NCBI GenBank assembly: GCA_964016885.1 | Contig: OZ024741.1 | Coordinates: forward strand, 43,276,001-43,340,000 | Length of the DNA: 64,000 nucleotides | Direction: 5' to 3' | Origin: Eledone cirrhosa | Taxonomy: Eukaryota | Part shown: in pieces, positions 3,200 to 58,319 of the stretch | Layout of the letters: every line of letters starts with the position of its first letter | How positions within the stretch are numbered: position 1 is the stretch's first letter | The notes under the pieces: generated by a model | Seen by the model: the letters and a program-made list of their open reading frames with translations, nothing else | Database searches by the model: none | What the model was told of the DNA's origin: nothing | Made by a program: the position numbers and the translations under genes

Positions 3200-4147
3200 G
3201 TGTAGGTTGAAGGGATATTTAATTTGTTGGAAATCCAACAAATATAAATGTTTATAACTGATTCAGAGCACTCGACAAATTTTGGAGTAAATATTCAATG
3301 ATATTAAATAAATGGAAACTATATTTATAAAACCATATTTATTCTATTATATATATTTTAAGGGTACCAACAAAACTTTGGTACGCTTTCATCAGATAAA
3401 ATACAAAGTCTGTTTTATAAATGTTGACATAGCCAAGGAAATCATACCTTATCAGTTGAATATTCAGGTAGTCGGATTATAGAACAGATTTTTCAAACTT
3501 ATGGATAAATATGCAAATGAATATGTAAATAATTGAAAAACCGTTATTTTAAACGCTATGGAGAGTTTAGATATATTATAATAAGAGAGAAATAAAGAAG
3601 AAGGAAAAGAGAAAACGAAAAATAAGAAGAAGGAAAGGGGAAAAGGGAAGGGAAGACCACATATAACGTTAATTTGGGGGGAATATATTCGAACATTTGT
3701 CTATGTATATATTTATATGTAGAATTATGTTTGTAAGTATTTATCTTATTATATTGGAGTGGGTTAAATATATATATCTATATATATTTTATTAGCATAT
3801 GTATTTTTATTATATATATATTCAACATCCTTCGTAACTCATATTATAAACATCTAATAATTGTAAATTATCCTTTTAATAAAAATACATATGCTATTAA
3901 AATATATATAGATATATATATTTAACCCACTACAATATAAGAAGATAAATACTTACAAACACAATTCTCCATATAAATATATACATAGAATATATTTCCC
4001 CCAAATTAAGGTTATATGTGGTCTTCCTTTTCCTTTTTCCTTTTCCTTCTTCTTATTTTTCCTTTTCTTTTTTCCTTCTTCTTTCTTTCTCTCTTATTAT
4101 GATATATCTAAACTCTCCATAGCGTTTAAAATAACGGTTTTTCAATT
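3200..4147 (-). mobile_element. Non-coding PLE-related element with decayed HHR (3341-3402, minus; GAAA>AAAA) and ~270-bp inverted duplication (3531-3815 vs 3880-4147)
   Basis: Homologous to 57893-58234; arms are visibly reverse-complementary. Confidence 0.8.
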
Positions 4148-4292
4148 TTTCTATGTATATATATATCTATAATCTATAATATATATATAATCTATGCATA
4201 TATATATATATACACTCATGTATATATATATGTGTGGGTGTAGGTATATATATATATATATATGTATATATAAATACACACACACACACATG

Positions 4293-4397: not shown

Positions 4398-4458
4398 GTG
4401 GGTGTGTGTGTATGTATATATATATTTGAAAATGTACCAATATTGAAAATGTACCATA

Positions 4459-7400
4459 TTGAAATGTACCATATTGAAAAATGTACCAATTCCCTCTAAG
4501 GATGAATTCCTTCTTCTTATACAAAAAACTAACCAATTTATTAGAAGAGTTTGTTGGCGGACATACCACTTCGATAACAAAACCAAAAGAGATGAGAAGA
4601 AAAACTTTTATGACTTTCGCACATATAAAAACCCTCCTCACAATTCTATGCTTGAAAATTTTGAAAAAGATTTACTAAATATGATTAAACACAAATCAAA
4701 CTTGATTAAACACAAATCAAACTTTCAAAAAGAACTGGACTCTCCTCTATTTAAATTAAAAACTTCTAGTAAAATTCATCTCCACTCTGACAAAACTGGC
4801 AACTTATACCATATGAACATTGATGAATATAACCAATTCATTTGTAAAGAACTAAGGAAGAACTATAAGAAAACCAGTAGTACAGCACTCACCTCGATAA
4901 ACAATAAATCATACACCATAGTAAAGGAACTCAACATCGAAGATAGAACCGAACCTTTCACACCAAAAGATCCACACTTTAATCTGAAAGATCACAAATC
5001 TGACTTCAACTCAAAGCCATCGATTAGAGTCATATGCTCATCTAAGTCGGACATCGGAGTAATAAGCAAGAAGATTCTTGATAAAATTATCCCACAAATA
5101 AGGAAGCATGTAAAACTACCGGTATGGGAAAACACTTCCCAAGTTATCAATTGGTTCTCCAACATCAAAGATAAGCCCTCAGCTTCATTTCTCCAATTCG
5201 ACATCGATGCATACAATTCACCAATAGCCCCAATACTTCTGAACCAAGCATTAATTTTCGCTCAAAATAGATCGGATTTAACTATGGATGACATTAAGAT
5301 CATCACACACGCCAGACAAACTCTATTGGACTTCCAGGACGAGTATTGGACTAGGAATACTTATAGTGAATTATATGATATTACTATGGGCTCAATGGAT
5401 TCCGCCCAGGTTACGGACCTTGTGGGCCTCTTCCTCTTACATAATTTGAATTCCTCTTTTCCTCACCTCAATGGTGGTCTATATCGCGATGACTGTCTTC
5501 TTCTAGCTGATAATCTTAGTCTCTCAGCAATTGAGAGAAATAAAAAGCATATTATGAAATTCTTCAAAAATTACTATAATCTTGCGGTTACTTTGGAAAC
5601 TAGACTAAAAAGGTCAATTTCCTCGACATCTCTTTAGATCTATCAACAGGCATTACCAACCCTACCACAAACCAAACCAAAACCTCCATTATATACATTT
5701 ACTATCTAACCACCCTAGTTCCATACTAAAACATCTAGTCTACAATATCTCACTCAGACTATCTAAATTATCATCTAGTGAAGAAATATTCTATAAAAAT
5801 GCACGTTATTATAATGAGGCTTTAAATAGAAGTGCCTATAAAGATAAAGCATTTTACATACCTAACACCATGAATAACCCTAGCATACAGCCAACAATAA
5901 GCAACAAACACCGTAGAAAACACCAAAAGTTAGTGCCGAAAAACCTAGATCATACCATTACTCCCAATATCCACATTAACACGAATGACACAAATTCTCT
6001 AAAAATTACCAATCCTATCGATTCCGAATATTTCTATAACTTACCTAATATTATTACTACAAACCGTGCAAAAACACCTAACTCCACTACTCTTAAAAAA
6101 GCAGTTAATAATAACACCTTATATCTTAATTCTCACAATAAACCTAATGATATATCACCTATCACATCGAACCTTCAACATAACGAAACTACACCCTTGC
6201 AATCCAAAAAACTAGAGAAACATATCCGAACTACCGTATATAACAAGAATGATACCGAAATTCCAGGTCCTATCAATAATGCTTCATTAACAAAACTCAC
6301 AATATCCTCTACAAATCAAACAAAAAGCAATAAATCAAAAACTAATACAATTCAAAAATCTACTAAACAATTAGTTCACACCCATAATAACAATCACAAT
6401 GTTATAATTTCATCTGATAACAATATCTACCCTCAAACTTCTATACATACCCAATATAACAAGAGGAAACCTTTTTAGGAACCATAAAAGAAATGTACCA
6501 TGGTATAACGCGCCATTCAACTTGCAAACTATGGGCCAAATCCCTAAAAGATTTTTTACAATTCTCGATAAGCATTTCCCACCTAACCACAAATACCATC
6601 AAATCTTAAACATAAATACAGTAACATTTTCTTACTCCACATCGAGCAATATACAAGAAAAAATAAGTGCATATAACATCTATAAATGTAAAAAAGCTCC
6701 ATCTATACCACATACAAGAGCACACCACATACAAGATAACTATGGTAATACTACAACGCATAACCAGAATATTACTGCATACCCACCTGAAAGATCCACT
6801 CACTCACCTCACCAGCACAATATAGTAGACTACAACCAACTACCATCTTCCTCATCCTTAATAGGGACTAAGATTTACATACCCAATCTAACTAATAGCG
6901 CCCAAAACAACCATGACTCCATAAACGCTATATCAAGTATAATTTCACCTACTAGCAACAATTCGGATTATAACCACCCTACCGTAAACCCTTCTATCCC
7001 AAATAAAAAGGTAAACACAAATACTAGCACTATTATTGAGAATATGGATAGCACATCTGAAACCCTATATGCAAACGGTTGTAATTGTATAATAAAAGAA
7101 AATTGCTCCTTAAATGGAAATTGCTTAATTAATAATATAGTATATAAATGTGTAATCACCACTAAAGACTCTAATCAATCTTATATAGGATCCATTTCTA
7201 ATCCATTTAAATCGAGATTTTATGCACACACCCACAGTTTCCGAAACACAAAATTAGCAAATACCACTTCTTTAGCAGAAGCAATTAATAATTGTAAGAA
7301 GAAGAATATTAAATATAACCTAACTCCGAAGATTCTTAAGAGAACTATTTCTTATCAGGGCAATAGAAGGTTGTGCGGACTATGTTCCCAAGAAACTTTT

Positions 7401-7505
7401 GAAATTACTAAATCGAAGGACACTCTATTAAATAAAAGACAAGGATTAATTTTAGTATGTAACCATAAAATTAGAAGGACATTCAAATATTATAAATACA
7501 ACTAA
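4459..7505 (+). pseudogene. PLE reverse transcriptase + GIY-YIG endonuclease polyprotein (frameshifts near 5610, 5655 and 6475)
   Basis: ORFs 4459-5637 (RT, YRDD), 5870-6478 (linker) and 6522-7505 (GIY-YIG) join across frameshifts. Confidence 0.9.
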
Positions 7506-14326: not shown

Positions 14327-14862
14327 AGTATGTGTGGTGGTCTACCGACACCTCAGTTGGCAGGTTGGAGCACTCGAGGAGTACACAGGTTGATTTGTTT
14401 ACTCCGGAGTAATGTAAAATAAGTAAGTCAAACATGTTAAAGTTGGCTTCGTTTATTATAAATTCCTGCTATATATATTTCTGTGACAGCCATTATTGGC
14501 TGTCACCTCTTCAGGCAGTACAAATTAATGTAGAAAGAATAGGTAAGCATGGTGTTGAAAAGTGTTCCACTCTGTTAATTCATCCATATGTCCAGCTCCT
14601 GGGTGTGTTGTTAGTCCTACGAGGCACTGGAATCATATATGATTCCAGATATGATTCCAGTTCCTCGTAGGACTAACAACACACCCAGGAGCTGGATATA
14701 TCGATGAATTAACAGAGTGGAACACATTTCAACACCATGTTTACCTGTTCTTTCTACATTATTTCGGACTGCCTGAAGAGGTCACAGCCAATAATGGCTG
14801 TCACTGAAATATATATAGCAGGAATGTATAATAAACGAAGCAAATTTAACAACTTTGACTTA

Positions 14863-14866
<4 letters not shown>
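14327..14866. mobile_element. Fold-back non-autonomous PLE derivative with two HHRs (14466-14518 minus, 14769-14821 plus)
   Basis: ctgc CTGAAGA ggt(g/c)acagcc aataat ggctgtcac GAAA tatata TA gcag in both arms; ~215-bp inverted arms; ~90-nt tail on the left. Confidence 0.9.
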
Positions 14867-14902
<36 letters not shown>

Positions 14903-24079: not shown

Positions 24080-24770
24080 ACAGATATTCATATGTGGATG
24101 TTTATATTTGATTTCTTTGTACCTTGTGCTCATCCGAACCTACAAAGAAGTGATAGTACTTTTATGCTATTATTGTTGTTGGTATTGGTGGTGGTGTTGT
24201 TGTTATGGTCTTGATGTATTTGGGTAGATATAAGGGATTAGATATGTCACTTCCTGTTTGTTTATAATTTCCATGCGTCAATATCAATCACCAATTATCA
24301 TGACTTAACAGATAAACTATTGAAACAAATTTTATGTTGCGTTTATCATCGTATGTAATATTAGTTGTTCTTTTAATTATTTATGTGTTTTACTTTTATC
24401 TCATTCTAGAATTTAATGTAAAAACACAAAACAACATAGTGTGTAGTATCGTACTGCAAAACATATTCTGCTTCAATAGTATGGAAACGTTTCCAAATTT
24501 AAAATTCTTCAAATATATATTTATCGGTTGAAAAATCACTCCTGATTATACAGCGTTTGTTCTTTTCAATTACAGAGACTTTTATAACCGTAAAAGTTTT
24601 CACCCAGTAACATTTCTCTCATATCTTTTACATACAAAATAGAAGTCAGAATACTGTAAATATTATCGAAAGTAATGTGATTGTAAATGTGGCACTCATG
24701 CATAAAGTCGGCAAATCTCTCTCTTACGCTGTATATATATAAATATATATATATATATATTTATATATAA

Positions 24771-24870
<100 letters not shown>

Positions 24871-24875
24871 AAGTG

Positions 24876-24914
<39 letters not shown>

Positions 24915-24950
24915 TTATATATATAAGTGTATATATATATATATATATAT

Positions 24951-26791
24951 ATACATTTAGAAACACACAGATACATGCGGACACACACATATATACATGA
25001 ATGCATCCGCACCCAACTGTGAGTTAAGGGTGCCAACTTCACCGATGTTGCTCAATGAATGACTGGGACAGACCAATTCAGTTTGAACCAGACTGAACCA
25101 GTATCAGAGTTAAAAATACATTATGAAGAGAGAAGAAACATTTAGATATAATTAGTAATAAAATGTATCATACCTAAACTGTTCCTAAATTCCTCGACTA
25201 CGTAGTTTCATGGCATAAACAAAAACAATATATCAAAGATATAGAGTCCTTGCGAGGTCTGCCGACTTATCAAGAGGATACCTCATTTTACTAGTCTCAA
25301 GAACGCGTCTACACGACGTGAGAAAGAATCCCAAAAGGCGGAGGGGGAGATAGTCACGCGATATAACGGTCGAGAAACAGAGCTAAGCCTCCTATAACCA
25401 CGAAAAAAATACCACGGAGGCGGAGGGGGCATTCATATCGAGGCCGTAGAAGAGGTAGTGAAGAAGGCGAGAAGTATGAGTAATGGAAGCTTTCCAGTTG
25501 TCCCCACACTTCAAAGATTGCTCGACCAGAGGGAGTTATTAATACATTTAGAAACACACAGATACATGCGGAAACACACATATATACATGAATGCATCCG
25601 CACCCAACTGTGAGTTAAGGGTGCCAACTTCACCGATGTTGCTCAATGAATGACTGGGACAGACCAATTCAGTTTGAACCAGACTGAACCAGTATCAGAG
25701 TTAAAAATACATTATGAAGAGAGAAGAAACATTTAGATATAATTAGTAATAAAATGTATCATACCTAAACTGTTCCTAAATTCCTCGACTACGTAGTTTC
25801 GTGGCATAAACAAAAACAATATATCAAAGATATAGAGTCCTTGCGAGGTCTGCCGACTTATCAAGAGGATACCTCATTTTACTAGTCTCAAGAACGCGTC
25901 TACACGACGTGAGAAAGAATCCCAAAAGGCGGAGGGGGAGATAGTCACGCGATATAACGGTCGAGAAACAGAGCTAAGCCTCCTATAACCACGAAAAAAA
26001 TACCACGGAGGCGGAGGGGGCATTCATATCGAGGCCGTAGAAGAGGTAGTGAAGAAGGCGAGAAGTATGAGTAATGGAAGCTTTCCAGTTGTCCCCACAC
26101 TTCAAAGATTGCTCGACCAGAGGGAGTTATTAATACATTTAGAAACACACAGATACATGCGGACACACACATATATACATGAATGCATCCGCACCCAACT
26201 GTGAGTTAAGGGTGCCAACTTCACCGATGTTGCTCAATGAATGACTGGGACAGACCAATTCAGTTTGAACCAGACTGAACCAGTATCAGAGTTAAAAATA
26301 CATTATGAAGAGAGAAGAAACATTTAGATATAATTAGTAATAAAATGTATCATACCTAAACTGTTCCTAAATTCCTCGACTACGTAGTTTCGTGGCATAA
26401 ACAAAAACAATATATCAAAGATATAGAGTCCTTGCGAGGTCTGCCGACTTATCAAGAGGATACCTCATTTTACTAGTCTCAAGAACGCGTCTACACGACG
26501 TGAGAAAGAATCCCAAAAGGCGGAGGGGGAGATAGTCACGCGATATAACGGTCGAGAAACAGAGCTAAGCCTCCTATAACCACGAAAAAAATACCACGGA
26601 GGCGGAGGGGGCATTCATATCGAGGCCGTAGAAGAGGTAGTGAAGAAGGCGAGAAGTATGAGTAATGGAAGCTTTCCAGTTGTCCCCACACTTCAAAGAT
26701 TGCTCGACCAGAGGGAGTTATTAATACATTTAGAAACACACAGATACATGCGGACACACACATATATACATGAATGCATCCGCACCCAACT
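24951..26791 (-). mobile_element. Retrozyme-like tandem array, ~3.1 x 591 bp, one HHR per unit (25192-25277, 25783-25868, 26374-26459)
   Basis: Identical ORF-track entries recur every 591 bp. Minus strand reads cctc TTGATAA gtcggca...tgccac GAAAC tacgta GTC gagg; (TA)n flanks. Confidence 0.9.
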
Positions 26792-26806
26792 TATATATAT
26801 ATATAA

Positions 26807-26867
<61 letters not shown>

Positions 26868-27044
26868 CTGTATATGTAAATATATATATACATACATACG
26901 CATATATATATGTACATATATATATACATATATATAATATATATATGTATATGCATGTATGTATGCATATATATATATATATATATCTTCTTCTCCTTCT
27001 TCTTCTCCTCCTCCTCACATATTCCTGAGAGAGAGAGAGAGAGT

Positions 27045-31737: not shown

Positions 31738-31823
<86 letters not shown>

Positions 31824-33021
31824 GAGGTTTTTTTTACAAAATGAAAAATAACCGAGGTGTCCTACACGAGTGAAAGTATAAAGAAAAAGAGAGGAAATCG
31901 AAAATGCAACTGGAGTCTTATTTTTGTTTAAAATATACATATTTATTTGGTTCCTTTACCGGTTTCGCAGTTCTTCTGCTTTTCAAAAGGTGAGTTGAGA
32001 TGGAGTGTCTGTGGTTTTTCTCAAATCTGGTTGGTCTCTGAATGTTACTTGTTTTATATGGAAAACGTGGCTCGAAATGCCAGGTTTTTCGAGAAGTAAT
32101 TTGATTGGTTTGTCAATAATTATAATAAACTTCGCGCCAGTTCGCGTTACAATAGTTCTTCAAATAAGAGGGGGGGGGGGGATTGTCACAGGTTGGTTTT
32201 TCATATATGAGTGTTGGAATTTCTTTTTACTTGTAAAAATGGGCTCACGGAGGCTTTTTTTGGTTGGTTATAAATGAAATTATGGCTGTCACGTGAACAA
32301 GTTTTCATCAAATTTTCGTGCCCTTATTTGGAAATCCATTCTGTAGCCTGTTTAGAGAATTTTATGATAAGTGAAAGATAATGGTCAAGAGAAAGGGATG
32401 GGAGAATTGTTCTGGTTCAGTGAATATGGTTAGTTCCCTGGGGTGTCAGAATTCACATTTTCTATTGAATAAAGAAAGTAAAGATATATATGTTTATTTG
32501 TGTGCTTGTGTGTGTGTGCGTGTGTGTGTTGTGTGTGTGTGTGTATGTGTGTATTGGAAGATGATTCTATTAGTAGAAATGGGGGAGGGAGTTGTGTGTG
32601 TGTGTATATGGGTGTTATGTGTGTGTGTGCGAGTATGTTAAGATGGAGAGAATATATATTTTGTGTGTGTGTATATATGTGTGTAGGAAAGTGGTTCTAT
32701 TAGTAGAAATGGGGGAGGGAGTTGTGGGTGTGGGGGTTGTTATGTGTGTGTATGGGTGTTATGTGTGTGGGAGTATGGTGAGCATGTTAAGATGAAGAGA
32801 ATATATATATATATATTGTGTGTGTGTGTGTGTGTAGGAAAATGATTCCTTTAGGAGGAATATTTTTGAATGAACATATTTTCCTTACTTATTCGTATTT
32901 GTTCTGTTGTATTGTCAGTGCAAACGTATGTTAAGGTTTATTTAGTTCGGGTTTTTATTTTCTAAAGAAGAAGGTGTTATGTGTGTGTGTATGTCATATT
33001 ATGGTGTTGACATAATGTATA

Positions 33022-33830
33022 TTAAACCATATTTAATGCTGGTCTATGTTTCTGAATAAACATATTTTCATTATTTATTCGTATTTGTTCTGTTGTATTG
33101 ACAGCGCAAAGGTAAAATGGGAAGACTTGGAATTTGGGTGTCTTATTACTTGCGCAAATGTCTAGATGTGCACTTAGTGGTATCTGTCTCGTGGTTGGAT
33201 CTCGTAATTGTTGGCGATGAACTGTCATTCTGTTTCTGAGTGTGAGTTTAGTTTGTCCTATATAATCTTCATTGCATCCTTTACATTTAATGGTATAAAG
33301 TAGATTTTTTGATGAGCAAGTGAAGTGATTTTTTACAGTAAAATTTTGTCCTGATATAAATGTATACGTGTTGCCTTCAATGAGGTGAGTGCAGGTTCCA
33401 CAATTAGAGCGACCACATTTTTTGATACTTGGTTGTGGGTTTGTGGTAGGTAATTTGGCAATGGTGAGTAATGTTTTCAGTGATTTTGGTTGTCTTTTGC
33501 TTTGGATTGTTTTGTGTGTTTCAAGGGCTTTTTTCATTCTTGGGTTTTGTTTTAGTAGTGGGATATTCTTGTGAATAGTGTTGTAAGCTTCCGCATTTCT
33601 TGGGTTGTATGTTGAGATATATGATAGAATATTGGACGTACATTGAATTTGTTTCTGTTTCCGTAATTCATCAATGCCTATTGCTTTAGCCCTTTCTATT
33701 CCATTATTTATTAGTAATAGTGGGTACTCTCTCTCGAGTAGAATTTCCTTTAATTCTTGAAGTCTTTTATTTCGCGTTTCATAATTGGAGACAATTGTGC
33801 AAATTCTTCTTGCTAGGTTAAAAGGAATGT
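33022..33830 (-). CDS. PLE thumb remnant + GIY-YIG endonuclease (CCHH type), open frame, RT core missing
   Basis: NIPFNLARRIC...TYNP...KCGRSNCGTC...CSSKNLLYTIKCKGCNEDYIGQT..RMTVH..SAH..E..FI..PALN. Confidence 0.85.
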
Positions 33831-33834
33831 TTTT

Positions 33835-34945
33835 TCAATGGTATTATTATATCTAATGGCATTTCCCCTGTTGTTGTGTGGTCTTGTATAGAAGTTTCGG
33901 ACGTATTGAGGTTCGGTTTGTTGATAGTCCGGGTTGTAGATTTTGTTCCTTTCTGTGGGTTGGGATCTACGGTTTTGGAACAGGCTCTGTGTGGGCAAGG
34001 GTCTACGGTTTTGGAATAGGTTTTGTGTGGGTTGTGATATGCGGATCAGGTCCTGCCTTGTGTTCGGGGATCTTTGGTTTTTGTTAGTAGGGTTATAGTT
34101 TTGTCTATGGTTTCTGGGATTATCGTTATAGTTTTGCTGGGGGTACGTTGGACGTTTTGTTACTTTTTTTGTTATTTGTTGTGCATGTGGTGTGTGAGTT
34201 TTAGTTTGTTTTAAAAATGGGTTACCTGTATGTTGTTCATTTTTGAAGTCCATTTAGTAGTTGTTGAATCAGGTGGCGTTTTATTCCCATCGCTGGAGGG
34301 ATGTTAGTTCTTCATCCTCACAGTTTTCTTTCCAAAGTTTTAGGGGTTTTTTGTAGAGTAGGCCTTCAGAGTGCTTTGAGATTTATGTGTCCATCTGTTG
34401 GTCGAGTGACTTGAAGTTTTCTTCGTTGGAGTTGGCTCTTAATCGCAACAGTTCTATTTCTGTTTTAAATTTGTCCAATGCCATCTTTTCTCTAAGTCTT
34501 TGTAGGTTTTCTGGTTCATTCGGGATTGGTTTCATTTGGAGTTTTTTGTGGAGGATGTTTGGGGTAGAATTTAGCCAATTTTCATATATGTCTGCCTTGC
34601 CATAATTTTTTAGGAGATTCCAAAGGGCGAATTTGCGGGCTGTAAGCTTTTGAGTCCAGATGTTGATTAGGGTGTTTTCACTGAGTGGACATCTCGCAGA
34701 TTGGGTTCTAACCGTTGTTCCAGCACTTGGAGCATTGCTGTTTCAGTGGTTTCGATTAGGTTAGTTAATACTGGAGTAATTTTCGTCTCTTGGGTATTTT
34801 CTGTTTCATCGTGGGGTCCTTTTTTATAGATGTGTATTTGGTCCACATTGTTGGTCAAAATTGAGAGTTTAGAGGAAATCTCTTTGAGTTTATTTAAGAT
34901 GTCCTGGTTCAGTGAGTTGTTGTTTTGTTGAGACTTTGGTGGCAT
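33835..34945 (-). pseudogene. Upstream/N-terminal PLE ORF, coiled-coil-like then Q/N/P/R-rich, disrupted
   Basis: Starts MPPKSQQ ~25 nt after the tandem pLTR end; pieces 34667-34945 and 33813-34253 with an intervening helical frame containing stops. Confidence 0.55.
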
Positions 34946-36340
34946 TTTCGGTCTTCGTATGGTGGGTATATATTAGAAAGTGAGGTTTTTTTTTACAAAA
35001 TGAAAAATAACCGAGGTGTCCTACACGAGTGAAAGTATATAGAAAAAGAGATGAAATCGAAAATGCAACTGGAGTCTTATTTAAAAAAAAATATATATAT
35101 ATTTATTTGGTTCCTTTACCGGTTTCGCAGTTCTCCTGCTTTTCAAAAGGTGAGTTGAGATGGAGAGTCTGTGTTTTTTCTCACATCTGGTTGGTCTCTG
35201 AATGTTACTTGTTTTATATGGAAAAAGTGGCTCGAAATACCAGATTTTCGAGAAGTAATTTGATTGGTTTGTCAATAATTATAATAAATTTCGCGCCAGT
35301 TCGCGTTACAATAGTTCTTCAACTAATAGAACCACTTTCCTACCCACATATATACACACACACAAAATATATATTCTCTCCTTCCTAACATACTCGCACA
35401 CACACACATAACACCCATATACACACACACACAACTCCCTTCCCCATTTCTACTAATAGAATCATCTTCTAATACACCCCCACACACACACAAGCACACA
35501 AATAAACATACACATCTTTACTTCAATAGAAAATCTGAACTCTGACACCCCAGCGAACTAACCATATTCACTGAACCAGAACCATTCTCCCAATACCATT
35601 TCTCTTGACCACTATCTTTCCCTTGTCATAACATTCTCTATAAAGGCTACAGAATAGATTTCCAAATAAAGGCGCGAAAATTTAATGAAAACTTGTTCAC
35701 GTGACAGCCAAATTTCATTTATAACCAATCAAATCACGTTTATTAAAAAAAAGCCTTCGTGAGCCACCTTTTTATTTAAGTAAAGAAATTCAAACACACA
35801 CACAACACACACGCGCACACACACAAGCACACAAATAAACATACATATCTTTACTTTCTTTATTCAATAGAAAATCTGAATTCTGACACCCCAGCGAACT
35901 AACCATATTCACTGAACCAGAACAATTCTCCCATCCCTTTCTCTTGACCATTATCTTTCACTTATCATAAAATTCTCTAAAAAGACTACAGAATGGATTT
36001 CCAAATAAGGGCACGAAAATTTAATGAAAACATGTTCACGTGACAGCCATAATTTCATTTATAACCAACCCCAAAAAAACCTTCATGAGCCCCTTTTTTC
36101 AAGTAAAAAGAAATTCAAACACTCATTTATGAAAAAGCAACCTGTGACAACCCCCCCCCCCTCTTATTTGAAGAACTATTGTAACGCGAACTGGCGCTAA
36201 ATTTATTATAATTATTGACAAACCAATGAAATTACTTCTCGAAAAACCTGGCATTTCGAGCCACTTTTTCCATATAAAACAAGTAACATTCAGAGACCAA
36301 ACAGATGTGAGAAAAACCACAGACCCTCCATCTCAACTCA

Positions 36341-36646: not shown

Positions 36647-38337
36647 GGTATATGTATATACGCCCATATATATGAATTTATATATATATGTATATATGTA
36701 TATGTAATAATGAGTGCGTGTATGACACACAGTAAGTTAAATGGGACATGAAATGTCTTTCATCTTTTTTAAACTAAACGAATTTTTGGTAGAAAATTCT
36801 CTCTGTTGTATATTTACGACGGCATTCTATTTACTGCCGTTTGCATAACTAATATTAACTTACAACCTTTAAATATTTTATTATCCAATTAATTCACTTT
36901 CATCATTTTTTAAAAAGCGATTCTATTTTTTTCTAATTGCAATCTATATTTTCCTACGGCATTCAATAAATTAATTTAAATATTTTATATATACTTTTAT
37001 TTAAAAAAATATATATTCAAGTGATCGGTGGTGGGAATAATTTGAATCTTGGATATTTTGCATGACAGGCACTGAAAATTATTTCTGTTTTTAATTTCAC
37101 TTTTCAATTATATATTTATTAAAATAACAGATTAAAGTTTAAGCAAAGAATCGCTGCTTTCACCCTTAACGGATCTTCTGAAACTAACAAAGTCAATCTG
37201 TAAACGCAGAAGTGGATATTTCAAAAAACGTTGCAACCGGAGGAAGACAGGAAGACGATACTTTGGTTCGTGGAAACGTTCGCTGGTAAAGAACGGGAAA
37301 AAACGAATAATACGTCATTAATAGGAGCAGTGAAAAAAATTACGCGCAAAGACAGAACCACGTTTGTGGTATAAAAGAGGTCGTAGACTAACATTCTCTT
37401 AGGTGGTTCATAGAGACGTTCTCTGGCAATGAACGAAAAAAACGAAGATAATACGTCATATGTGGAGCGTGGAGAATAACAGCACGCAAAGACAAAACCA
37501 CGTAAATAGTATAGCAGAAGTCGTGGACTAAAATTCTAATTAGGAGACCGAATGAATCTCCGCTACAGAGTTAGGAACAAAGTAAATAAATACAATACAG
37601 AAGTAATAGAAATAAATAAATACATACATGCAAACAAATACGTACATACACAAGCATACGCAAAACACTTACCATAGGTATACAAAGCCACGCACATATA
37701 AATATGTGTGTGTGTGTATGCGTGTATACAAATAAATAAATAATTATATAAACGAATATAAATAAATAAATACGTATATAACAAGCGCACACACATACCT
37801 ACATGTAAATACACGAGTGTTCGGGGACGTAAATCAACCAAACATGAAGTACACATATACGCGCACCCTACATACGTACGAATCTGCATACTCACACAGG
37901 CGCAAAACTCCTCCCGTATCCCATATGTACCAGAATATATAAAAATATACGCCATAACAATCAAATATACGTACGAGAAGGTTTACGTACCTTCACAAAA
38001 CATACGGGTAATAAATACTTACCTCCTGCCAGCATAACCAAGAACCTGGTAAGAAACGTTTCGTTTAGGCTTTCCCGTCTTTCCCCCAACGAGCGTATTT
38101 TCAACGACCATTCCACTTATTACAATGAAGCTCTTGCTGGAAGTGGATTTGTCGATAAGGTAGCATATACAGAGTACGAAAATAGACCTAGAAGAAATAG
38201 ATCCCGTCGCAGTTGTTGGTATAACCCACCATATAATATGGAGGTGGCCACACCATTAGCTAAGATCTTTCTTTCCCTTATTACGAAGCATTTTCCCCTA
38301 CACATAAATATAGTAAAATTTCGCTAAAACACTCACA

Positions 38338-39639
38338 GTGGTTAAGGATTTCGAAGTTGATGTCATCCTCAATGCTCGAAAGTCGGTGATTAATTTCGAC
38401 GACTCTATTTGGATTAAAAGATCCAATAGTACCCCATTCGACGTGAGTATGGGTGCGAGTGATTCTGCGGAGGTTACTGATCTTATCGGCATTTTCCTTC
38501 TTTTCTCTATCAAGGACGAATTCCCCAACGCGGGCGGTGGTTTGTACCGTGACGATGGTCTTTTGACCATGACTAAGTGCGGACCTCGTGCTTGCGACAG
38601 GTTCAGAAAAGAACTCACGGCCTTCTTTAAAGGCTTCAACCTCTCTATACAGGTTGAGGCCAATCTCTCGCTCGTTAATTACCTCGACGTTACCCTCAAT
38701 TTATTGAATGGGTTGTATTACCCGTATAGAAAGCCGAATGATACGCTTAATTACATAAGTAAGCATTCCAACCATCCTGCCAGCATAACCAAGAACCTGG
38801 TAAGAAACGTTTCGTTGAGGCTTTCCCGTCTTTCCACTAACGATCGTATTTTCAACGACCATTCCACTTATTACAATGATGCTCTTGCTCGAAGTGGATT
38901 TGTCGATAAGGTAGTATATACAGAGTACGAAAATAGACCTAGAAGAAATAGACCCCGTCGCATTTGTTGGTATAACCCACCATATAATATGGAGGTGGCC
39001 ACACCATTAGCTAAGATCTTTCTTTCCCTTATTACGAAGCATTTTCCCCCTACACATAAATATAGTAAAATTTTTAATAGAAATACTATTAAAATTTCTG
39101 ACTCTACGACGCCTAACCTTGCACATAGAATCACAGCTTCAAATTTAGCTAAACTACCTAGCCGTAGGAACACGTGCAACCCTGTAGTTAGTACTAACTG
39201 TAATTGTAGGAATCGGGTTGATTGCCCCCTATCCGGGAAATGCCTCTCTAGTAACATTGTCTACAAATGTAAGGTTTTAACACCCACGTCCCGTAGGGCC
39301 TACATAGGGCTAACCGCCAATAGATTCAAGCAGCGTTTTTACATGCATACCCATTCCTTTCGTTACCCCCTAAGAAGGAATATTACGTCACTTTCAGCTT
39401 ATATCTGGAGTCTAAAAGACAACCACACCCAATATAAGTTACACTGGGAGATCCTAGCTAGCGCTAGATCGTATAACGGAAATAAAAGACCATGTGACCT
39501 CTGCGCCGCTGAGGCCCTGGAAATACTCTACGCCACAGACCACATCTTAAACAAACAATCTGAGGCAATTTCGGCTTGTAAACATAAATTGCACAAAACT
39601 TTCCTGTATTACAGCCCCACGTTATACCCTAACGGATAG
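38338..39639 (+). CDS. PLE RT (C-terminal half, YRDD) + GIY-YIG endonuclease, uninterrupted 433 aa, N-truncated
   Basis: FDVSMGASDSAEVTDLIG, GGLYRDDGL, NYLDVTL, SNHP, WYNPP, CNCRNRVDCPLSGKC..IVY..YIG..FKQRF..H, CDLC, CKHK. Confidence 0.93.
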   Translation: MVKDFEVDVILNARKSVINFDDSIWIKRSNSTPFDVSMGASDSAEVTDLIGIFLLFSIKDEFPNAGGGLYRDDGLLTMTKCGPRACDRFRKELTAFFKGFNLSIQVEANLSLVNYLDVTLNLLNGLYYPYRKPNDTLNYISKHSNHPASITKNLVRNVSLRLSRLSTNDRIFNDHSTYYNDALARSGFVDKVVYTEYENRPRRNRPRRICWYNPPYNMEVATPLAKIFLSLITKHFPPTHKYSKIFNRNTIKISDSTTPNLAHRITASNLAKLPSRRNTCNPVVSTNCNCRNRVDCPLSGKCLSSNIVYKCKVLTPTSRRAYIGLTANRFKQRFYMHTHSFRYPLRRNITSLSAYIWSLKDNHTQYKLHWEILASARSYNGNKRPCDLCAAEALEILYATDHILNKQSEAISACKHKLHKTFLYYSPTLYPNG

Positions 39640-40555
39640 TACGATCTATACGTGGATATTTTACGTCTTGATGTGGGATCTAAGTATATGTTTTGTTTAT
39701 ACAATTACTTATTTGCATAGGTAAGTATTTATTACCCGTATGTTTTGTGAAGGTACGTATACCTTCTCGTACGTATATTTGATTGTTATGGCGTATATTT
39801 TTATATATTCTGTTACATATGGTATACGGGAGTTTTGCGTCTGTGTGAGTATGGAGATTCGTACGTATGTAGGGTGCGCGTATATGTGTACTTCATGTTT
39901 GGTTGACTTACGTCTCCGAACACTCGTGTACTTACATGTAGGTATGTGTGTGCGCTTGTTATATACGTATTTATTTATTTATATACGTTTATATAATTAT
40001 TTATTTATTTGTATACACGTATACACACACACACATATTTATATGTGCGTGGCTTTGTATACCTATGGTAAGTGTTTTGCGCATGCTTGTGTATGTACGT
40101 ATTTGTTTGCGTGTATGTATTTATTTATTTCTATTACTTCTGTATTGTATTTATTTACTTTGTTCCTAACTCTGTAGCGGATATTCATTCGGTCTCCTAG
40201 TTTGAATTTTAGTCCACGACTTCTGCTATACCATTTACGTGATTTTGTCTGTGCGTGCTATTGTTCTCCACGCTCCACATATGACGTACTATCTTCGTTT
40301 TTTTCGTTCATTGCCAGAGAACATCTCCATGAACCACCTAAGAGAACATTAGTCTACGACCTCTTTTATACCACATACGTGGTTCTGTCTGCGCGTAATT
40401 GTTTTTCACCGCTCCTATTAATGACGTATTATATTCGTTTTTTCCCGTTCTTTACCAGCGAACGTTTCCACGAACCCAAGTATCGTCTTCCTGTCTTCCT
40501 CTGGTTGCAACGTTTTTTGAAATATCCACTTCTGCGTTTACAGATTGACTTTGTT

Positions 40556-40606
40556 AGTTTCAGAAGATCCCGTTAAGGGTGAAAGCAGCGATTCTTTGCT
40601 TAAACT
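40556..40606 (+). ncRNA. Hammerhead-like motif with CAGAAGA core (mirror copy 37136-37185, minus)
   Basis: agttt CAGAAGA t-ccc gttaa ggg-t GAAA gca..tgc TT aaact; all three stems present. Confidence 0.6.
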
Positions 40607-40713
40607 TTAATCTGTTATTTTAATAACTATTTTCTCTACGGTTCTTATATATGGGATATATATTTATCCTTATCGAGCCCTCTTTGGATTTTAGTCTTCA
40701 AATTTATTATTAT

Positions 40714-40768
<55 letters not shown>

Positions 40769-44726: not shown

Positions 44727-45040
44727 AGTATATGTTGGTTGTATACCAACACCTCAGTATGCAGGCTGGAGCACTTGACGAAGTGCGCAGGTTGGTTTGG
44801 TTACTCCGGAGTAATGTAAAATAAAGTAAAATAAATAAGTCCAATGTTTAAAATTTAGCTTCGTTTATTACTGCTATATATATTTCGGTGAGAGCCGTCT
44901 TTGGCCGTGACCTCTTCAAGCAGTCCGAATTAGTGTGGTATGGACAAATACATATGTTGTTGAGGTGCATAATTTTGTCAATACTCCGATATGCCCAGTT
45001 CCTGGTTGGGTTGTTATTTCACTGAGGAACTGGAATCATA
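44727..45040 (-). mobile_element. Relative of the 14327 HHR element (HHR 44871-44923, C3>U)
   Basis: Colinear with 14327-14640. Confidence 0.8.
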
Positions 45041-45091
45041 TATATATATATCATATATATATATATCATATATATATATAAATATATATAT

Positions 45092-45122
<31 letters not shown>

Positions 45123-45128
<6 letters not shown>

Positions 45129-45882
45129 TATGAAGAGAGAAGAAACATTTAGATATAATTAGTAATAAAATGTATCATACCTAAACTGTTCCTAAATTCC
45201 TCGATTACGTAGTTTCGTGGCATAAACAAAAACAATATATCAAAGATATAGAGTCCTTGCGAGGTCTGCCGACTTATCAAGAGGATACCTCATTTTACTA
45301 GTCTCAAGAACGCGTCTACACGACGTGAGAAAGAATCCCAAAAGGCGGAGGGGGAGATAGTCACGCGATATAACGGTCGAGAAACAGAGCTAAGCCTCTT
45401 ATAACCACGAAAAAAATACCACGGAGGCGGAGGGGGTATTCATATCGAGGCCGTAGAAGAGGTAGTGAAGAAGGCGAGAAGTATGAGTAATGGAAGCTTT
45501 CCAGTTGTCCCCACACTTCAAAGATTGCTCGACCAGAGGGAGTTATTAATACATTTAGAAACACACAGATACATGCGGACACACACATATATACATGAAT
45601 GCATCCGCACCCAACTGTGAGTTAAGGGTGCCAACTTCACCGATGTTGCTCAATGAATGACTGGGACAGACCAATTCAGTTTGAACCAGACTGAACCAGT
45701 ATCAGAGTTAAAAATACATTATGAAGAGAGAAGAAACATTTAGATATAATTAGTAATAAAATGTATCATACCTAAACTGTTCCTAAATTCCTCGACTACG
45801 TAGTTTCGTGGCATAAACAAAAACAATATATCAAAGATATAGAGTCCTTGCGAGGTCTGCCGACTTATCAAGAGGATACCTC

Positions 45883-45886
<4 letters not shown>
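45123..45886 (-). mobile_element. Second insertion of the 591-bp retrozyme-like unit (~1.3 units; HHRs 45199-45284 and 45790-45875)
   Basis: Near-identical to the 24951-26791 unit but in a different circular phase. Confidence 0.92.
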
Positions 45887-45942
<56 letters not shown>

Positions 45943-46135
45943 AACGAAGGAAATGTGGTAAAGAACCAGATGGACCATAACGCACCAAAGTACTCAATAC
46001 TTAAGGTAGTAGAGTGGCTAATAGGAACAAGTATGACCCCGACAGCAGAGCTCAAGCCGTTTCGACGGCTAATTCAGTCTTGAATTAGCCGTCGAAACGG
46101 CTTGAGCTCTGCCGTCGGGGTCATACTTGTTCCTA
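45943..46135 (-). mobile_element. Short fold-back remnant of PLE family A
   Basis: Same layout as 1738-1933 in the opposite orientation. Confidence 0.88.
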
Positions 46136-46145
46136 TATATATATG

Positions 46146-46574: not shown

Positions 46575-48230
46575 GAGCAGCTCATCGGAATATTACATAA
46601 CATCAGAGCCGAAATCCAACCCTTGCAAGGAGGAATGTATAGCGACGACGCCCTATTTGCAGTTCACAATTACACTAATCGAGGCATTGACTTGCTCAAA
46701 AAACAATTACGCAGATTCTTTAAAAATAACGGTCTCTCTATCACCATCGAGCCGAACCATAAAGTAGTAAACTTCCTAGACGTTACCCTGGATCTTAACA
46801 ATAACCTATATTACCCTTAGCATAAACCAGGTGAAATACTTACATATATTAGCCCACACTCTAACCACCTACCGGCAGTCATCAGAGCAGTAATCAAATC
46901 TATCTCATATAGGATCTCCATGCTATCAGCAAATGAGGAGATATTTATGAACCATGCAGCATATTATAATAATGCTCTTTCTGAATCTGGTTATGAACAG
47001 TCCATTAACTACATACCTAAATGCCATAACACAGCAATTCACCACAACCATAATAAACTTAACACTAGAACTAGAAATACCTTAGCATATGGCCAGATTC
47101 GCAGGAATGTTAGCAGTAACAGCACTTATACAGGAAACCTTAATGGTGGGAGTGGCCTGCTTCCCACTCCAAGTAGCAAATTAAAAATTAACCCTAGAAT
47201 AGGAATGAGCAAAGGGATGACAAATAATAAATGCCCAGGTAATAATAAACTTATGAAGGCCCCTACCAACTCCACTAGAACCCCTAGAAGGAACAGGCCC
47301 AGAAATATCACCTGGTTTAACCCCCATTCTCATCTAATCTAGCCACTAATATCCCTAAACGCCTCTTCTCTATCATATCTAACCCCCACCCCAACCATAG
47401 ATATTACAAACTCTTTAATAAAAATAACATTAAAATCTCATTCTCCACAACACCTAACCTAGCTAGCCACATCGCATTCACTAACCATCATAAACTAAGA
47501 CAGTATAACACCCACACCGCAGTACCACCACCCCCATCAAATACACCACGCCATTACACCAATACTTACTCTAGTAGCACACCTCCCCCATCTAATCCTG
47601 CTAGCACTGACCAACCGCTTAGGTTAAACAACCCTACTCTCACTAACCGCAGAAGTAACTGCAACTGCCATTACCCTAATGCATGCCCACTAAACGGACA
47701 TTGCCTGACACCCAACATAGTCTATAGGTGCACGGTTAAAACTGCTTCGCAGACCAGCTCATTTGTCGGGTCTAACTCTAACTTTTTTAAGGTATGCTAT
47801 AACGCGCACTCTTTTTCCTTCCGAGACCCTAACAATAGATATTCGACATCTCTAGCTAGGCTCATTAAAAACCTTAAATTAACCAACATTGAAACTCACA
47901 AGACTGACCTAAAAGAAGTATAAATAAATAAATAAATAGATAAATAAATAAATACATACACAAGCACAATAACAACAAACACATATAAACACACACTAGT
48001 AAAGATAGAATACATTAACCAATACACAGTCACCCAATCACGAACACACATCAAACAAAACACTATACACACACCCAAACGCATGCGCAAAGAAGACAAA
48101 AAACAAAACAAATAAATAAATATATAAACAGACTAAATAAAGATGGCGTAGAAAATACAATGCAACGGGAGGAAACAATAACACGACTGACGATGTTGCA
48201 GATGTGCAATGAAAGAACTTTGATAGACTA
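46575..48230 (+). pseudogene. Decayed Hydra-type PLE (RT YSDD to GIY-YIG) with HHR-like motif at 48181-48222
   Basis: GGMYSDDAL, VNFLDVTLDL, SNH, TWFNP, CNCHYPNACPLNGHC..IVY..FVG; CTGACGA t-g-ttgca gatg tgcaa-t GAAA. Confidence 0.85.
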
Positions 48231-50136: not shown

Positions 50137-53100
50137 GGAACAAGTGCGACCTCGACGGGAGAGCTCAAGCCATTTCGACGGCTAATTCTGGACTAAATAA
50201 GAATTGTTAGCCTGGTAAATAAGTAGCCGGACATCTCAGGTGGTAATTCCATATATGGGAAGATAGTAATTGTCAAAAGGATTGGTGAAAATTTGTTGTA
50301 AAGACAGTTGATTCTATCATGGCATTTAGTGGAAGGTAGGGGTAGCTGAACTTGCCGGTAGAACAAAGGGAGAGTGGGGGGAAGCCCAGTCAAGTGTTGA
50401 AAGTGAAATCTATACAACAGATTCTAAGGATAGAGTATAGAAGGTCGAAAAAAGTGTACTGGAGAATGGGAGTGGAGGGGAGGGGGTCAAAAAATAAGTA
50501 AATCGAAAGGGAGTAAACAAACAAGCCATTATAAAGATGAGGAGATAAATATATAATAAAAAAACAAATATATAAAAAAACAACAATTTCTGGTTACTAT
50601 TTCATCCCCACAATCCCCAAATCTCTCATTGGTATTGTTAAGCTATAGAAAAGTATAGGTGGAGAAAAATGCTAAATACGGGATTGTAGTGAAAGCACTT
50701 TATAAAGCCATCTTTACAGGGGTTCTGACACCACTGCAATAGTTAGTAGTAAACAGCCAATGCTATCTTACAATGACAGGTTAATAAGTTGAGGACAAAC
50801 ATACTAAAAAACTAATACGAAATATTAATTCAGAATGCTAATACATACTAATACCAAGAATACTAAAGCAAAGATACCACTAAGAATTTTATAAAGCTAT
50901 CTTTACAGGCTGTCTAACACCACTGCAATAGTTTGTAGTAATCAGCCAATGCTATCTTACAATGACAGGTTAATAAGTTGAGGACAAACATACTAAAAAA
51001 CTAATACGAAATATTAATTCAGAATACTAATACAATAAATACTAATACAAGAATACCAATGCAGAAATACCACTAAGAAATTTAGAAATCACAGAAATGG
51101 AGCAGCAACCAGAAAGAAGGCAATTATCTGTGGTCTAACACATCTGCTATAAAAATCGTAATGGGCCAATTCTATCTTAAAATTAAGGGAATGGGGGCTG
51201 AGGCTACAGAGGACCGATGGGCTGCATCGAGGTGGGCGAAAAGTTGAAAAAAAAAAGACGGCAAGGAAGGATGTCTGGGGTGGAAGGACTAGGAAGAGAT
51301 GGGGGAAGAAGGAACTATAGAGGAAAAGATAATAAAACTATAAAATTTACGTCTACCTTTGTAAGCAGGGATTACCCCTTACAAAGTCGGCAAGTGTGTG
51401 TTTCAGCACTTGTCTACCCCCCTCGCCCCAGGGTCATTATGGGGTTTGAGGGAGAGGTAAGTCCTACGCAATCTGTGTTTGCATGCAGTTACCAATTCGT
51501 CTTTCTTGTTTAGGAGTTGGTCATTCGAAAACAGCATTTGTAATGATTCCTCCGAGCATAAGTTACACGGACGGCGTCCTCCCGTGTAAGAGTTAGCACT
51601 GGACAGTAAGCTCCAAGTTAGATTGTATGTTATATTATTATCTTTGAGGTCCCAGGTGTGGCCCGAGAGTGTAGTGGTGTGACGCCGGGCCGGGTTTCGG
51701 AAAGTATGTCTGTGTAGGTAGATCCGGGTCTTGAAGTCACAAGCGGTTACTCCTATATAAGCTTTGTTGGAGGTGTCCGTCCTCATGTTGCACTGGTAGA
51801 TCACATTACGATCTCGGCATCTGTTGTTGAGGGGGCAAAGGGATCTATGAAGACAGTTTCACCTGCTGGTCGACTCTCCACTGCTGTCTCGGTTATTTCT
51901 TCCATAGCGGTTGAGTTTTTTGTTGTTAGATGAGACGATGTTTTGTGTGAAGTTAGGTGTGGTGCTGTAGGAGAGTTTAATGGTGTTTTTGTTGATTATG
52001 TTATGGTAGCGGTGTTGTAGTGGGAAGTGTTTTTCGATGAGCCTAAAGAAGATTTTCCCGATAGGTGTTGTCACCTTGGCATTGTGGGGATGATTGAGCG
52101 GCGGTGTCGCCTGCTGGTTCCGCTAATGGAAGCTGGATTTTAGGATATTTCATTTTGGAAGCCACTCCGCTTGAGGGCCTGGTTGTAATAAGGCGCATGT
52201 TCATCGAATATCTGCTCATTGGCGGACAGACGAGATATGCGGAGGGAGATGTTTTTAACTACGTTATTGGTGATGTTTCTAGGGTGGTTCGACCGGCCGT
52301 GGATGTAATGAAGGTTGTCGTTAGGTTTCAAATATGTGTAGTACCTAACCCGAGTAAACTTCCTGGACGTTAGACTTAATCTCGATAATGATCTGTACTA
52401 CCCATACAGGAAACCTAACTGCATTTAATCCACCGCCGGTCGAACCATCCTAGAAACATCACCAATAACCTGGTTAAAACATCTCCCTCCGCATATCTCG
52501 TCTGTCCGCCAATGAGCAGATATTAGATGAACATGCGCCTTATTACAACCAGGCCCTCAAGCGGAGTGGCTTCCGGGAGGAAATATCCTATTATTCAGCT
52601 TCCATTAGCGGAACCAGCAGGCGACACCGCCGCTCACGCAACGTAACGTGGTTCAATCCTCCCCCACAATGCCGAGGTGACAACACCTATCGGGAAATCT
52701 TCTTTAGGCTCATCGAAAAACATTTCCCACTACAACACCGCTACCACAACATAATCAACAAAAATACCATTAAACTTTCCTACAACACCACACCTAACTT
52801 CACACAAAACATCGTCTCCTCTAATAGCAAAAAATTCAACCCCTATGGAAGAAATAGCCGAGACAGAAGTGGAGAGTCGACCAGCAGCTGAAACAGTCCT
52901 AATAAATCCCTTTGCCCCTCAACAACAGATGCCGAGATCGTAATGTGATCTACCAGTGCAACGTGAGGACGGACACCCCCAACAAAGCTTATATAGGAGT
53001 AACCGCTTGTGACTTCAAGACCCGGCTCTACCTACACAGACATACTTTCCAAAACCCGGCCCGGCGTCACACCACTACACACTTGGGCCACAACTGGGAC

Positions 53101-54415
53101 CTCAAAGATAATAATATAACATACAATCTCACTTGGAGCTTACTGTTCAGAGCTAACTCTTACAGGGGATGACGCCTTCCGTGTAACTTATGCTCGGAGG
53201 AAACGTTACAAATGGTGTTTTCGAAGGACCAACTCTTAAACAAGATACGAATTGGTAACTGCATGCAAACACAGTTTGTGTAGGACTTACCTCGCCCTCA
53301 AACCCCATAATGACCCGGGAAGGGGGGGGGCGGTAGAAAAAGGCTGAAACACCACACTTGCCGACCCTGTAAGGGGTAACCCCTGCTTACAAAGGTAGAC
53401 GTAACTTTTTTATATTTGTTTATCTTTTCCTCTATAGTTCCTTCTTCCCCCATCTCTTCCTAGTCCTTCCACCCCAGACATCCTTCCTTGTCGTCTTTTT
53501 TTTTTCAACTTTTCGCCCACATCGATGTAGCCCATTGGTCCTCTGTAGCCTCACCCCCCCCCCTCCTTAATTTTAAGATAGAATTGGCCGATTACGCTTT
53601 TTATAGCGTTAGGCCCCAGTTAATTGCCTTCTTTCTAGTTGCTGCTCCATTTCCTTGATTTCTAAATTTCTTAGTGGTATTTCTGCATTGGTATTCTTGT
53701 ATTAGTATTTATTGTATTAGTATTCTGAATTAATATTTCGTATTAGTTTTTTAGTAGGTTTGTCCTCAACTTACTAACCTGTCATTGTAAGATAGCATTG
53801 GCTGATTACTACTAACCATTGCAGTGGTGTCAGAACCCGTATTTAGCATTTTTCTCCACCTATACTTTTCTATAGCTTAACAATACCAATGAGAGATTTG
53901 GGGATTGTGGGGATGGAATAGTAACCAGAAATTGTTTTTTTTAATATATTTTTCTCCTCGTCTTTATAATGGCTTGTTTGTTTACTCCCTTTCGATTTAC
54001 CAATTCCCCCCTCCCCTTCTCCAGTACACTTTTTTCGACCTTCTATACACTATCCTTAGAATCTGCTGTGTAGATTTCACTTTCAACGCTTGACTGGGCT
54101 TCCCCCACTCCCTCTTTGTTCTACCAGCAAGTTCAGCTACCCCACTAAAGACCATGATACAATCAACTGTCTATAACAACATTTTGACCAATCCTTTTGA
54201 CAATTACTATTTTCCCATATATGGAATTACCCCCTGAGAAGTTCGGCTACTTATTTACCAGGCTAAACATTCTTGTTTATTCCAGAATTAGCCGTCGAAA
54301 CGGCTTGAGCTGTGCCGTTGGAGTCATACTTGTTCCTATTACCCACTCTACTACGTTAAGTATTGTGTACTTTGGTGCATTATGGTCCATCTGGTTCCTT
54401 ACCACATTTCCTTCG

Positions 54416-55512: not shown

Positions 55513-55589
<77 letters not shown>

Positions 55590-55596
<7 letters not shown>

Positions 55597-57893: not shown

Positions 57894-58229
57894 GTAGATG
57901 GGATATTTAATTTGTTGGACAAATATAAGTGTTTATAACTGATTCAGAGCACTCGACAGTTTTCTAGACTAAATATTCAATGATATTAAATAAATGGAAA
58001 CTATATTTATAAAACCATATTTATTCTATTATATATATTTCAAGGGTACCAAAAACTAGTAGTCAAGGAAAATTCAACTGATAAGGTATGTTTCCTTGGC
58101 TATGTCAAAATTCATAAAACACACTGTGTATTTTATCTGATGAAAGCGTACCAAAGGTTTTGGTACCCTTGAAATATATATAATAGAATAAATATGGTTT
58201 TATAAATATTGTTTCCATTTATTTAATAT

Positions 58230-58234
<5 letters not shown>
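57893..58234. mobile_element. Fold-back with HHR (58130-58189, plus) and ~85-nt tail on the left
   Basis: attttat CTGATGA aag-c-gtacca aaggttt tggtac-c-ctt GAAA tatata TA atagaat; inverted half copy at 57978-58054. Confidence 0.88.

Positions 58235-58315
<81 letters not shown>

Positions 58316-58319
<4 letters not shown>

Follow-up and report, generated by a model that had tools for sequence, protein, structure and literature searches.

Fixed, paired start sites and array-wide A-to-G changes in a 591-bp hammerhead retrozyme suggest copying of a circular RNA by a Penelope-like enzyme

A 591-bp repeat of Eledone cirrhosa, which is a non-coding, protein-free non-LTR hammerhead retrozyme, likely spreads as a circular monomer RNA that is copied by a Penelope-like element (PLE) RT-endonuclease from the two ends of an (AT)n break, a reading to which we give a probability of about two in three. 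The fixed, paired ends of its insertions and the A-to-G changes repeated along its arrays suggest that a borrowed Penelope-type enzyme likely rolled round one circle. A circular RNA template and a PLE partner have both been proposed for retrozymes (Cervera and de la Pena 2020, PMC7229834; Li 2026), as have circles as template for copies longer than one unit (Cervera and de la Pena 2014, PMC4209133), and the mobilisation of animal retrozymes by PLEs has so far been argued from co-occurrence and pLTR similarity. These ideas belong to the earlier papers, and the element class, its length and its U3:A8 core are also already known; what is new here is the counted genomic evidence, as the 591-bp family provides countable genomic footprints for both the circle-template and the PLE-partner ideas.

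The 591-bp unit, its hammerhead and its relatives

The window, that is, the whole 64,000-nucleotide stretch analysed (positions 43,276,001-43,340,000 of contig C2 in a genome of 3.0 Gb), contains two single-armed insertions of the unit, both on the minus strand. The first (24951..26791) comprises 3.11 tandem units, starts at site A and has its inner end at unit position 68, and the second (45123..45886; 764 bp, 99.3% identical to the array) comprises 1.29 units, starts at site B, its first base being unit position 166, and has its inner end at unit position 338. In the array, 1247/1250 positions are identical at lag 591, compared with 285-413 at lags 580-599, and neighbouring units differ at 3 positions. 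The left ends of both insertions read (TA)n-ATACATT, which is AATGTAT-(AT)n on the minus strand. Insertion 1 lies between an (AT)n target run (24732..24953) and an (AT)n-rich run (26792..26986), and insertion 2 between an (AT)n target run (45038..45125) and an (AT)n run (45886..45928).

The hammerhead core heptamer UUGAUAA occurs once per unit on the minus strand and never on the plus strand, and the longest ATG frames of the circularised unit have 45 aa (plus) and 75 aa (minus). According to this, the sequence-only reading, which had described a 591-bp array with a second copy at 45123-45886, a non-coding unit with one hammerhead per monomer and minus-strand 3' ends that both finish at AATGTAT running into (AT)n, was correct in all of these points. 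The same reading had supposed the unit to be unusually long for an animal retrozyme, which does not hold, since 591 bp falls inside the 51-972 bp given for retrozyme families in a recent survey, where the mean in ray-finned fish is 650 bp (Li 2026, bioRxiv 10.64898/2026.07.22.740005). The units follow each other head to tail and contain no ORF, so that, judging from the unit layout and the ORFs, there is no LTR/PBS/PPT organisation, and as the unit lacks an RT or GIY-YIG ORF it is not an autonomous PLE.

We have also considered that a longer coding PLE could lie behind the unit, which would then be no more than its pLTR, or that the unit could be a satellite amplified at the DNA level. Retrozymes are related to pLTRs (Li 2026, bioRxiv 10.64898/2026.07.22.740005) and 5'-truncated PLE copies look alike; however, besides the lack of any ATG frame over 75 aa, the arms of the aligned loci run unit into unit, a PLE frame lies directly upstream in 0/30 loci of an older lineage (three Hydra hits, at two loci, are about 1 kb away), and the strand-biased A-to-G marks described below point to RNA, which leaves this the least probable of all the explanations weighed here.

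The following elements of a type I hammerhead are present in the unit: the core boxes (UUGAUAA/GAAA/GUC, with cut site GUC), the 3-8 pair, in which U3:A8 replaces C3:G8, G10.1-C11.1, an NUH site and three helices (I, UCCUC/GAGGA; II, GUCGGCA/UGCCAC with a long insert; III, palindromic ACUACGUAGU). The U3:A8 core together with the helix II insert of approximately 45 nt makes it an atypical hammerhead. The consensus form is found on the minus strand at 25782..25869, at 26373..26460 and, at the inner end of insertion 2, at 45789..45876, while two of the five hammerheads of the window deviate: the one at 25191..25278, with a predicted cut between 25196 and 25195, carries a change at 25210 that turns G10.1-C11.1 into G10.1-U11.1, and in the one at 45198..45285 a helix III pair is lost through a change at 45205. 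Among 259 motifs collected in the genome by an anchored search, 247 have UUGAUAA, a share that is partly due to the way the collection was built, 11 have UUGAAAA (all in the relative that we call family X) and one has UUGAUGA. No Rfam family reached its gathering score over the window, and the eight weak matches at E<=10 were unrelated and included no hammerhead family; because of this, the ribozyme call rests on the core motif, the helix pairing and conservation. When the hammerhead was forced, the predicted fold was 2.8 kcal/mol above the free minimum of the stretch, and therefore the active fold is plausible without being dominant in the prediction. The circular minus-strand monomer is predicted to fold with an MFE of -170.7 kcal/mol (z=-5.1 against 40 shuffles). 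In Xenopus, cleavage was reported for one of nine retrozyme dimers (Li, Clavereau, Pollet 2026, bioRxiv 10.64898/2026.07.22.740005).

Searched across the genome, a 23-nt stretch of the hammerhead matches exactly at 7,505 places and its reversed control at none, and the best copies are 99-100% identical and spread over many contigs, so the 591-bp family is dispersed and young. For the counts given below we sampled 39 best-hit loci and 49 loci taken in order along contig C1 (from the first 100 matches), both sets requiring the hammerhead, and added six loci without the exact 23-mer. An arm exceeds one unit in 26/47 position-ordered loci, and the longest arrays reach seven units in one arm. One of the sampled loci (L082:2275-6128) holds a two-armed insertion that was duplicated with its flanks, the copies being 2.55 kb apart, and it was counted once. 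In contigs of four sequencing runs (type unrecorded) the unit closes on itself, which a tandem repeat would give as well, and 11 contigs of one of these data sets (X2) show a loose (AT)n end at 25116.

The family has several relatives. A 580-bp older lineage is 70% identical to the 591-bp unit and keeps the hammerhead core and both start sites. Family X (20 loci; L033:3375-3800 and L119-L138) is a non-coding and older relative that measures about 630 bp and has a UUGAAAA core; it keeps U3:A8 with different pairs in helices I, II and III and has a shorter tail with motifs in common with that of the 591-bp unit. A second retrozyme family is present in the window at 58312-62058 as two inverted arms in (AT)n; it has a 558-bp unit with a canonical CUGAUGA core, a palindromic helix III and start sites 122 nt apart, is also young, and reaches a maximum of about 11 units per arm elsewhere. 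Finally, an array family with a 310-bp hammerhead unit adjoins two of the sampled loci (L076:4294-5498 and L117:4873-5493). Upstream of the hammerhead, a TCACGTG(A) motif is found in the 580-bp lineage, the 558-bp family, family X and the pLTR region of a Neptune-type PLE (L169), and is possibly a shared internal promoter element. In the window, two GGCGGAGGGGG boxes and an E-box-like motif, which reads TCACGTG in the older lineage, lie at 25337..25430 and may form an internal promoter.

Two start sites and paired inverted arms

In the sampled loci, 128/132 arms start within about 7 nt of one of only two points of the unit, site A (unit position 1) or site B (unit position 166). This count comes from 88 loci, including the two of the window and leaving out L082 and L104; no arm of two others, L094 and L114, passed the 85%/60-nt filter. 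On the RNA, the distance from the cut site downstream to site A would be 245 nt, and to site B 80 nt, and both are putative starts of reverse transcription. Site A is used in insertion 1 of the window (24951..24957, minus) and has internal copies at 25542, 26133, 26724 and 45549, whereas site B is used in insertion 2 (45123..45129, minus) and has internal copies at 25116, 25707, 26298 and 45714, all on the minus strand. The 165 nt between them (24951..25115, minus) form a structured 'tail' with two long predicted hairpins that are kept across subfamilies; in seven subfamily sequences, pairing-compatible changes are two-sided in 5/49 pairs and one-sided in many.

The two sites stand out in the whole genome too. 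Site B has 2,517 exact (TA)n junctions and site A has 1,145, the latter being an undercount because A starts shift by 1-2 nt, while unit position 39, which is the longest AT match of the unit, has only 7. We therefore reject priming by microhomology only. The microhomology with the target sets the register and does not choose the start site. The sequence-only reading had taken the different starts of the two window insertions as free circular phases set by target microhomology, from a circular or multimeric RNA template. The part that stands is insertion into (AT)n from RNA, with a circle as the likely template; the phase chosen by microhomology has to be abandoned, and the mapping of end phases that had been suggested as a check places nearly all outer ends of the sampled loci at two sites 165 nt apart. 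The inner arm ends, for their part, are spread evenly over the unit. A target-site duplication cannot be read inside (AT)n, and 30/40 single arms end beside AT-type runs.

About half of the loci have two arms placed head to head (25/39 best-hit loci, and 23 of the 49 position-ordered loci when only independent ones are counted). One arm starts at A and the other at B in 45/48 of these two-armed loci (24/25 best-hit and 21/23 position-ordered), A+A and B+B pairs are absent, and in the remaining three one arm begins outside A and B. The six extra loci without the 23-mer added three further A+B pairs. In the 558-bp sister family (21 loci examined, of which one was unresolved and six were single), different sites are paired in 14/14 resolved two-armed loci. 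In the 580-bp older lineage, whose loci were selected through site A, there are 17 A+B and two A+A among 19 independent loci with both starts resolved, and because of these 2/19 the A+B pairing rule is strong and not absolute.

Inverted arms could also be produced if a single cDNA folded back and primed its own copying, with the tail trimmed afterwards by the endonuclease. Self-priming has been proposed for inverted structures and Penelope palindromes (Arkhipova 2013, PMC3846280), and among 44 A+B loci the joint is an exact palindrome in two and lies within 25 nt in phase in seven. However, neither arm contains the other in 13/44, which argues against fold-back copying, as these loci would need a further deletion, and the longer arm can be either of the two. 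We thus disfavour fold-back and regard it as very improbable. The joints between the arms (n=48) are blunt in 10 cases, overlap by 1-3 nt in 19 and by at least 4 nt in 4, and carry inserted bases in 15; microhomology at the joints is modest, as overlaps of at least 4 nt make up 4/33 of those without inserted bases (1.6% under the null).

Haplotypes, A-to-G changes and passage through the cut site

The units of one insertion are nearly uniform at the 30 common SNPs of the family. Pairs of units within arms differ in 25/5,904 comparisons (1,282 expected if random) and pairs between arms in 9/3,631 (791 expected), counts that are not independent of each other, and the two arms are identical in 34/39 loci when 12.9 would be expected. 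Furthermore, 29 variants are private to one locus and present in all its copies, and 20 of them, from eight loci, span both arms. In 5/39 two-armed loci the arms differ at one or more common sites, and therefore the copying sometimes moves to a different molecule, or mutations follow later.

The direction of the rare changes was analysed in 70 young loci of 90. Among the array-wide changes, 17/34 are A-to-G on the hammerhead strand, against only 4/88 of the changes confined to a single unit (Fisher p=3e-8), and in one locus (L112) every one of the 7-8 units, in one arm as in the other, carries six A-to-G changes. The array-wide A-to-G sites include unit positions 42, 70, 88, 114, 132 and 133. 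Of the 17 changes, two (at position 548) may represent alleles of an older subfamily. The single-unit changes lean in the opposite direction, 17 of them being A>G on the cDNA strand, which is what would be expected if an RT misincorporated G:U. The array-wide changes could result from editing of the RNA by ADAR; with regard to its neighbour preference, a 5' G precedes 1/15 edited sites compared with 28/132 A's, which is the right direction in too small a sample, and 7/15 edited sites are paired in the predicted fold, which is no enrichment.

The predicted cut site is crossed in 250 passes without an indel or a substitution. Inner ends fall at unit positions 240-250 in 3/132 arms, when 2.5 are expected, and in none of the six extra loci, and of the first 33 B junctions on C1, inspected by eye, 29 continue through the cut site. 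All these data point to a minus-strand RNA that underwent editing in its monomer form and was then copied seamlessly over and over, for which a circle is the simplest form. They place a monomer bottleneck somewhere in the lineage and not necessarily at each insertion, because a homogeneous source array would pass its haplotype on, so the haplotypes by themselves do not prove a circle each time.

Two other templates have to be weighed at this point. The same enzyme and the same two start sites could act on a linear multimer that homogeneous source arrays give on transcription and that is left uncut, and this is an unlikely alternative, although the strongest of those considered. Seamless passes through the cut site are equally expected from it, and PLE insertion in vitro uses unprocessed RNA and needs no hammerhead cleavage (Frangieh 2024, PMC11167929). 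However, the arrays in this genome gather unit-specific changes (88 singletons), yet only 12/131 appear at more than one locus, most of these being recurrent or at alignment edges; the six A-to-G changes of L112 need one monomer that was copied many times at some step; and single arms run to as many as seven units. Somewhat less likely still is a cut linear monomer from which arrays would arise by repeated jumps from the 5' end to the 3' end of the same or another monomer. Such jumps would explain multi-unit arrays without ligation, as well as the second haplotype at a few loci (L037, L059 and L074), but the 250 passes without an indel, the lack of an inner-end pile-up at the cut site, the 29/33 B junctions that continue through it and the near-total unity of the haplotypes all speak against them. 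We therefore return to the circular monomer as the preferred template.

On that template, the following course of events can be proposed. The minus strand would be transcribed and the transcript would cleave itself, the palindromic helix III probably allowing it to do so in dimeric form, after which the cut monomer would be re-ligated into a 591-nt circle and the RNA would acquire its A-to-G changes by ADAR editing. A dimeric enzyme encoded elsewhere in the genome would bind the structured 165-nt tail, and of the two ends of a break in (AT)n one would prime at site A and its counterpart at site B, so that twin-primed rolling reverse transcription round the same circle would give multi-unit inverted arms. 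The 3' ends of the two cDNAs would then be united by end joining, while copies with a single arm, to which both insertions of the window belong, would be cases in which only one primer left a product. We extend this, with slightly less than even confidence, to a joint reading in which the insertions record full PLE integration on circular RNA: the dimeric RT-endonuclease would grip the two-hairpin tail, each strand of the double-strand break would have a separate end of the tail for its priming, both active sites would roll round one edited circle, and the two cDNAs would be each other's second strand. If this is true, the inverted repeats of PLEs, their one-sided tail and second-strand synthesis would be explained in one step, and animal circular RNAs would be retrotransposition intermediates. 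The two start sites, the 165-nt tail, the 591-nt monomer and the (AT)n target are named here as exact parts for the in vitro PLE assay (Frangieh 2024, PMC11167929).

Candidate partners and comparison with known systems

Hydra-type and Neptune-type PLEs are inserted in (AT)n both in the window and in the genome, these labels having been read by eye from the linker motifs CxCX5C and CX2-5CxxC (Craig 2021, PMC8557442). Pfam recognised only 2/8 of the window frames. The earlier suggestion of comparing the unit with PLEs in order to find its mobilising partner gave no homologous pLTR: no pLTR similarity to the unit was found in 50 GIY-YIG loci (of 10,597 candidates) or in 30 old-lineage loci, the former showing nothing beyond short CA-rich matches and a copy of the unit itself close to one of them, and a profile of the tail searched against the 88 loci and the window matched only the 591-bp family itself. 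Family X and the 580-bp lineage were ruled out as the partner, both being non-coding relatives. The pLTRs of Neptune-type PLEs carry U3:A8 cores, and these families share with the unit only this core and a similar distance from the cut to site B (76 vs 80 nt). Neptune-type PLEs are thus the leading candidates, a proposal made on the likeness of the U3:A8 core.

Several PLE copies were observed along the way. Neptune-type PLEs with a U3:A8 pLTR hammerhead are present in the window at 31740-34972 (minus) and 55515-57603, and at L169:2300-7450, where a 938-aa open frame lies between two pLTRs and there are two end sites, 76 nt and about 144 nt beyond the cut site. A Hydra-type PLE at 37112-40716 (frame 38317-39639, CxCX5C linker) has two inverted arms and a tail of approximately 86 nt on one side only, and other Hydra-type fragments lie at 4447-7505, 46821-47923 and 50913-53834. 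Short palindromic two-armed insertions of PLE ends in (AT)n occur at 14419-14867, 3528-4150, 46021-46136 and 57970-58242, several of them with hammerhead motifs.

The family resembles the metazoan non-LTR retrozymes (PMC7229834; Li 2026) in its non-coding tandem units with less than 50% GC and one type I hammerhead each, its thousands of dispersed copies, its structured monomer and its co-occurrence with PLEs, and it differs from them by its U3:A8 core and long helix II insert. In the accessible text of those papers there are no fixed paired starts, two-armed insertions, one-haplotype arrays or array-wide A-to-G changes, and in the openly available main texts that were searched, neither paired start sites nor array-wide editing were described for retrozymes.

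The hammerhead itself is close to those of the Schistosoma Cercyon PLEs (PMC4209133), with which it shares the U3-A8 swap and a palindromic helix III suited to dimer cleavage. Unlike these minimal hammerheads, it has a helix III of 3-4 pairs, a long helix II extension and a tandem non-coding unit.

The closest parallels in the insertions themselves are with EN+ PLEs, whose signature is an inverted 5'-truncated copy and an optional tail of 30-40 bp at one end only (Craig 2021, PMC8557442; Arkhipova 2013, PMC3846280). The PLE protein PAc cuts and extends both strands and is predicted to be dimeric, and the PLE tail lies between two internal RT start sites (Frangieh 2024, PMC11167929). The 591-bp family has the layout expected of an EN+ PLE partner, that is, inverted arms, a one-end tail, two fixed 3' ends and a (TA)n target, and like EN+ PLEs (PMC8557442, PMC3846280, PMC11167929) it shows head-to-head arms, two internal starts that bound the tail, AT-rich or (TA)n targets and a hammerhead upstream of the starts. 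It differs from them in having no ORF, a tail of 165 nt instead of 30-40 and arms made of many whole units. Moreover, A/B pairing is near-strict in the 591-bp family, whereas PAc in vitro uses the start sites with no strand difference, and hence does not predict such strict pairing, and inserts without need of hammerhead cleavage (Frangieh 2024, PMC11167929).
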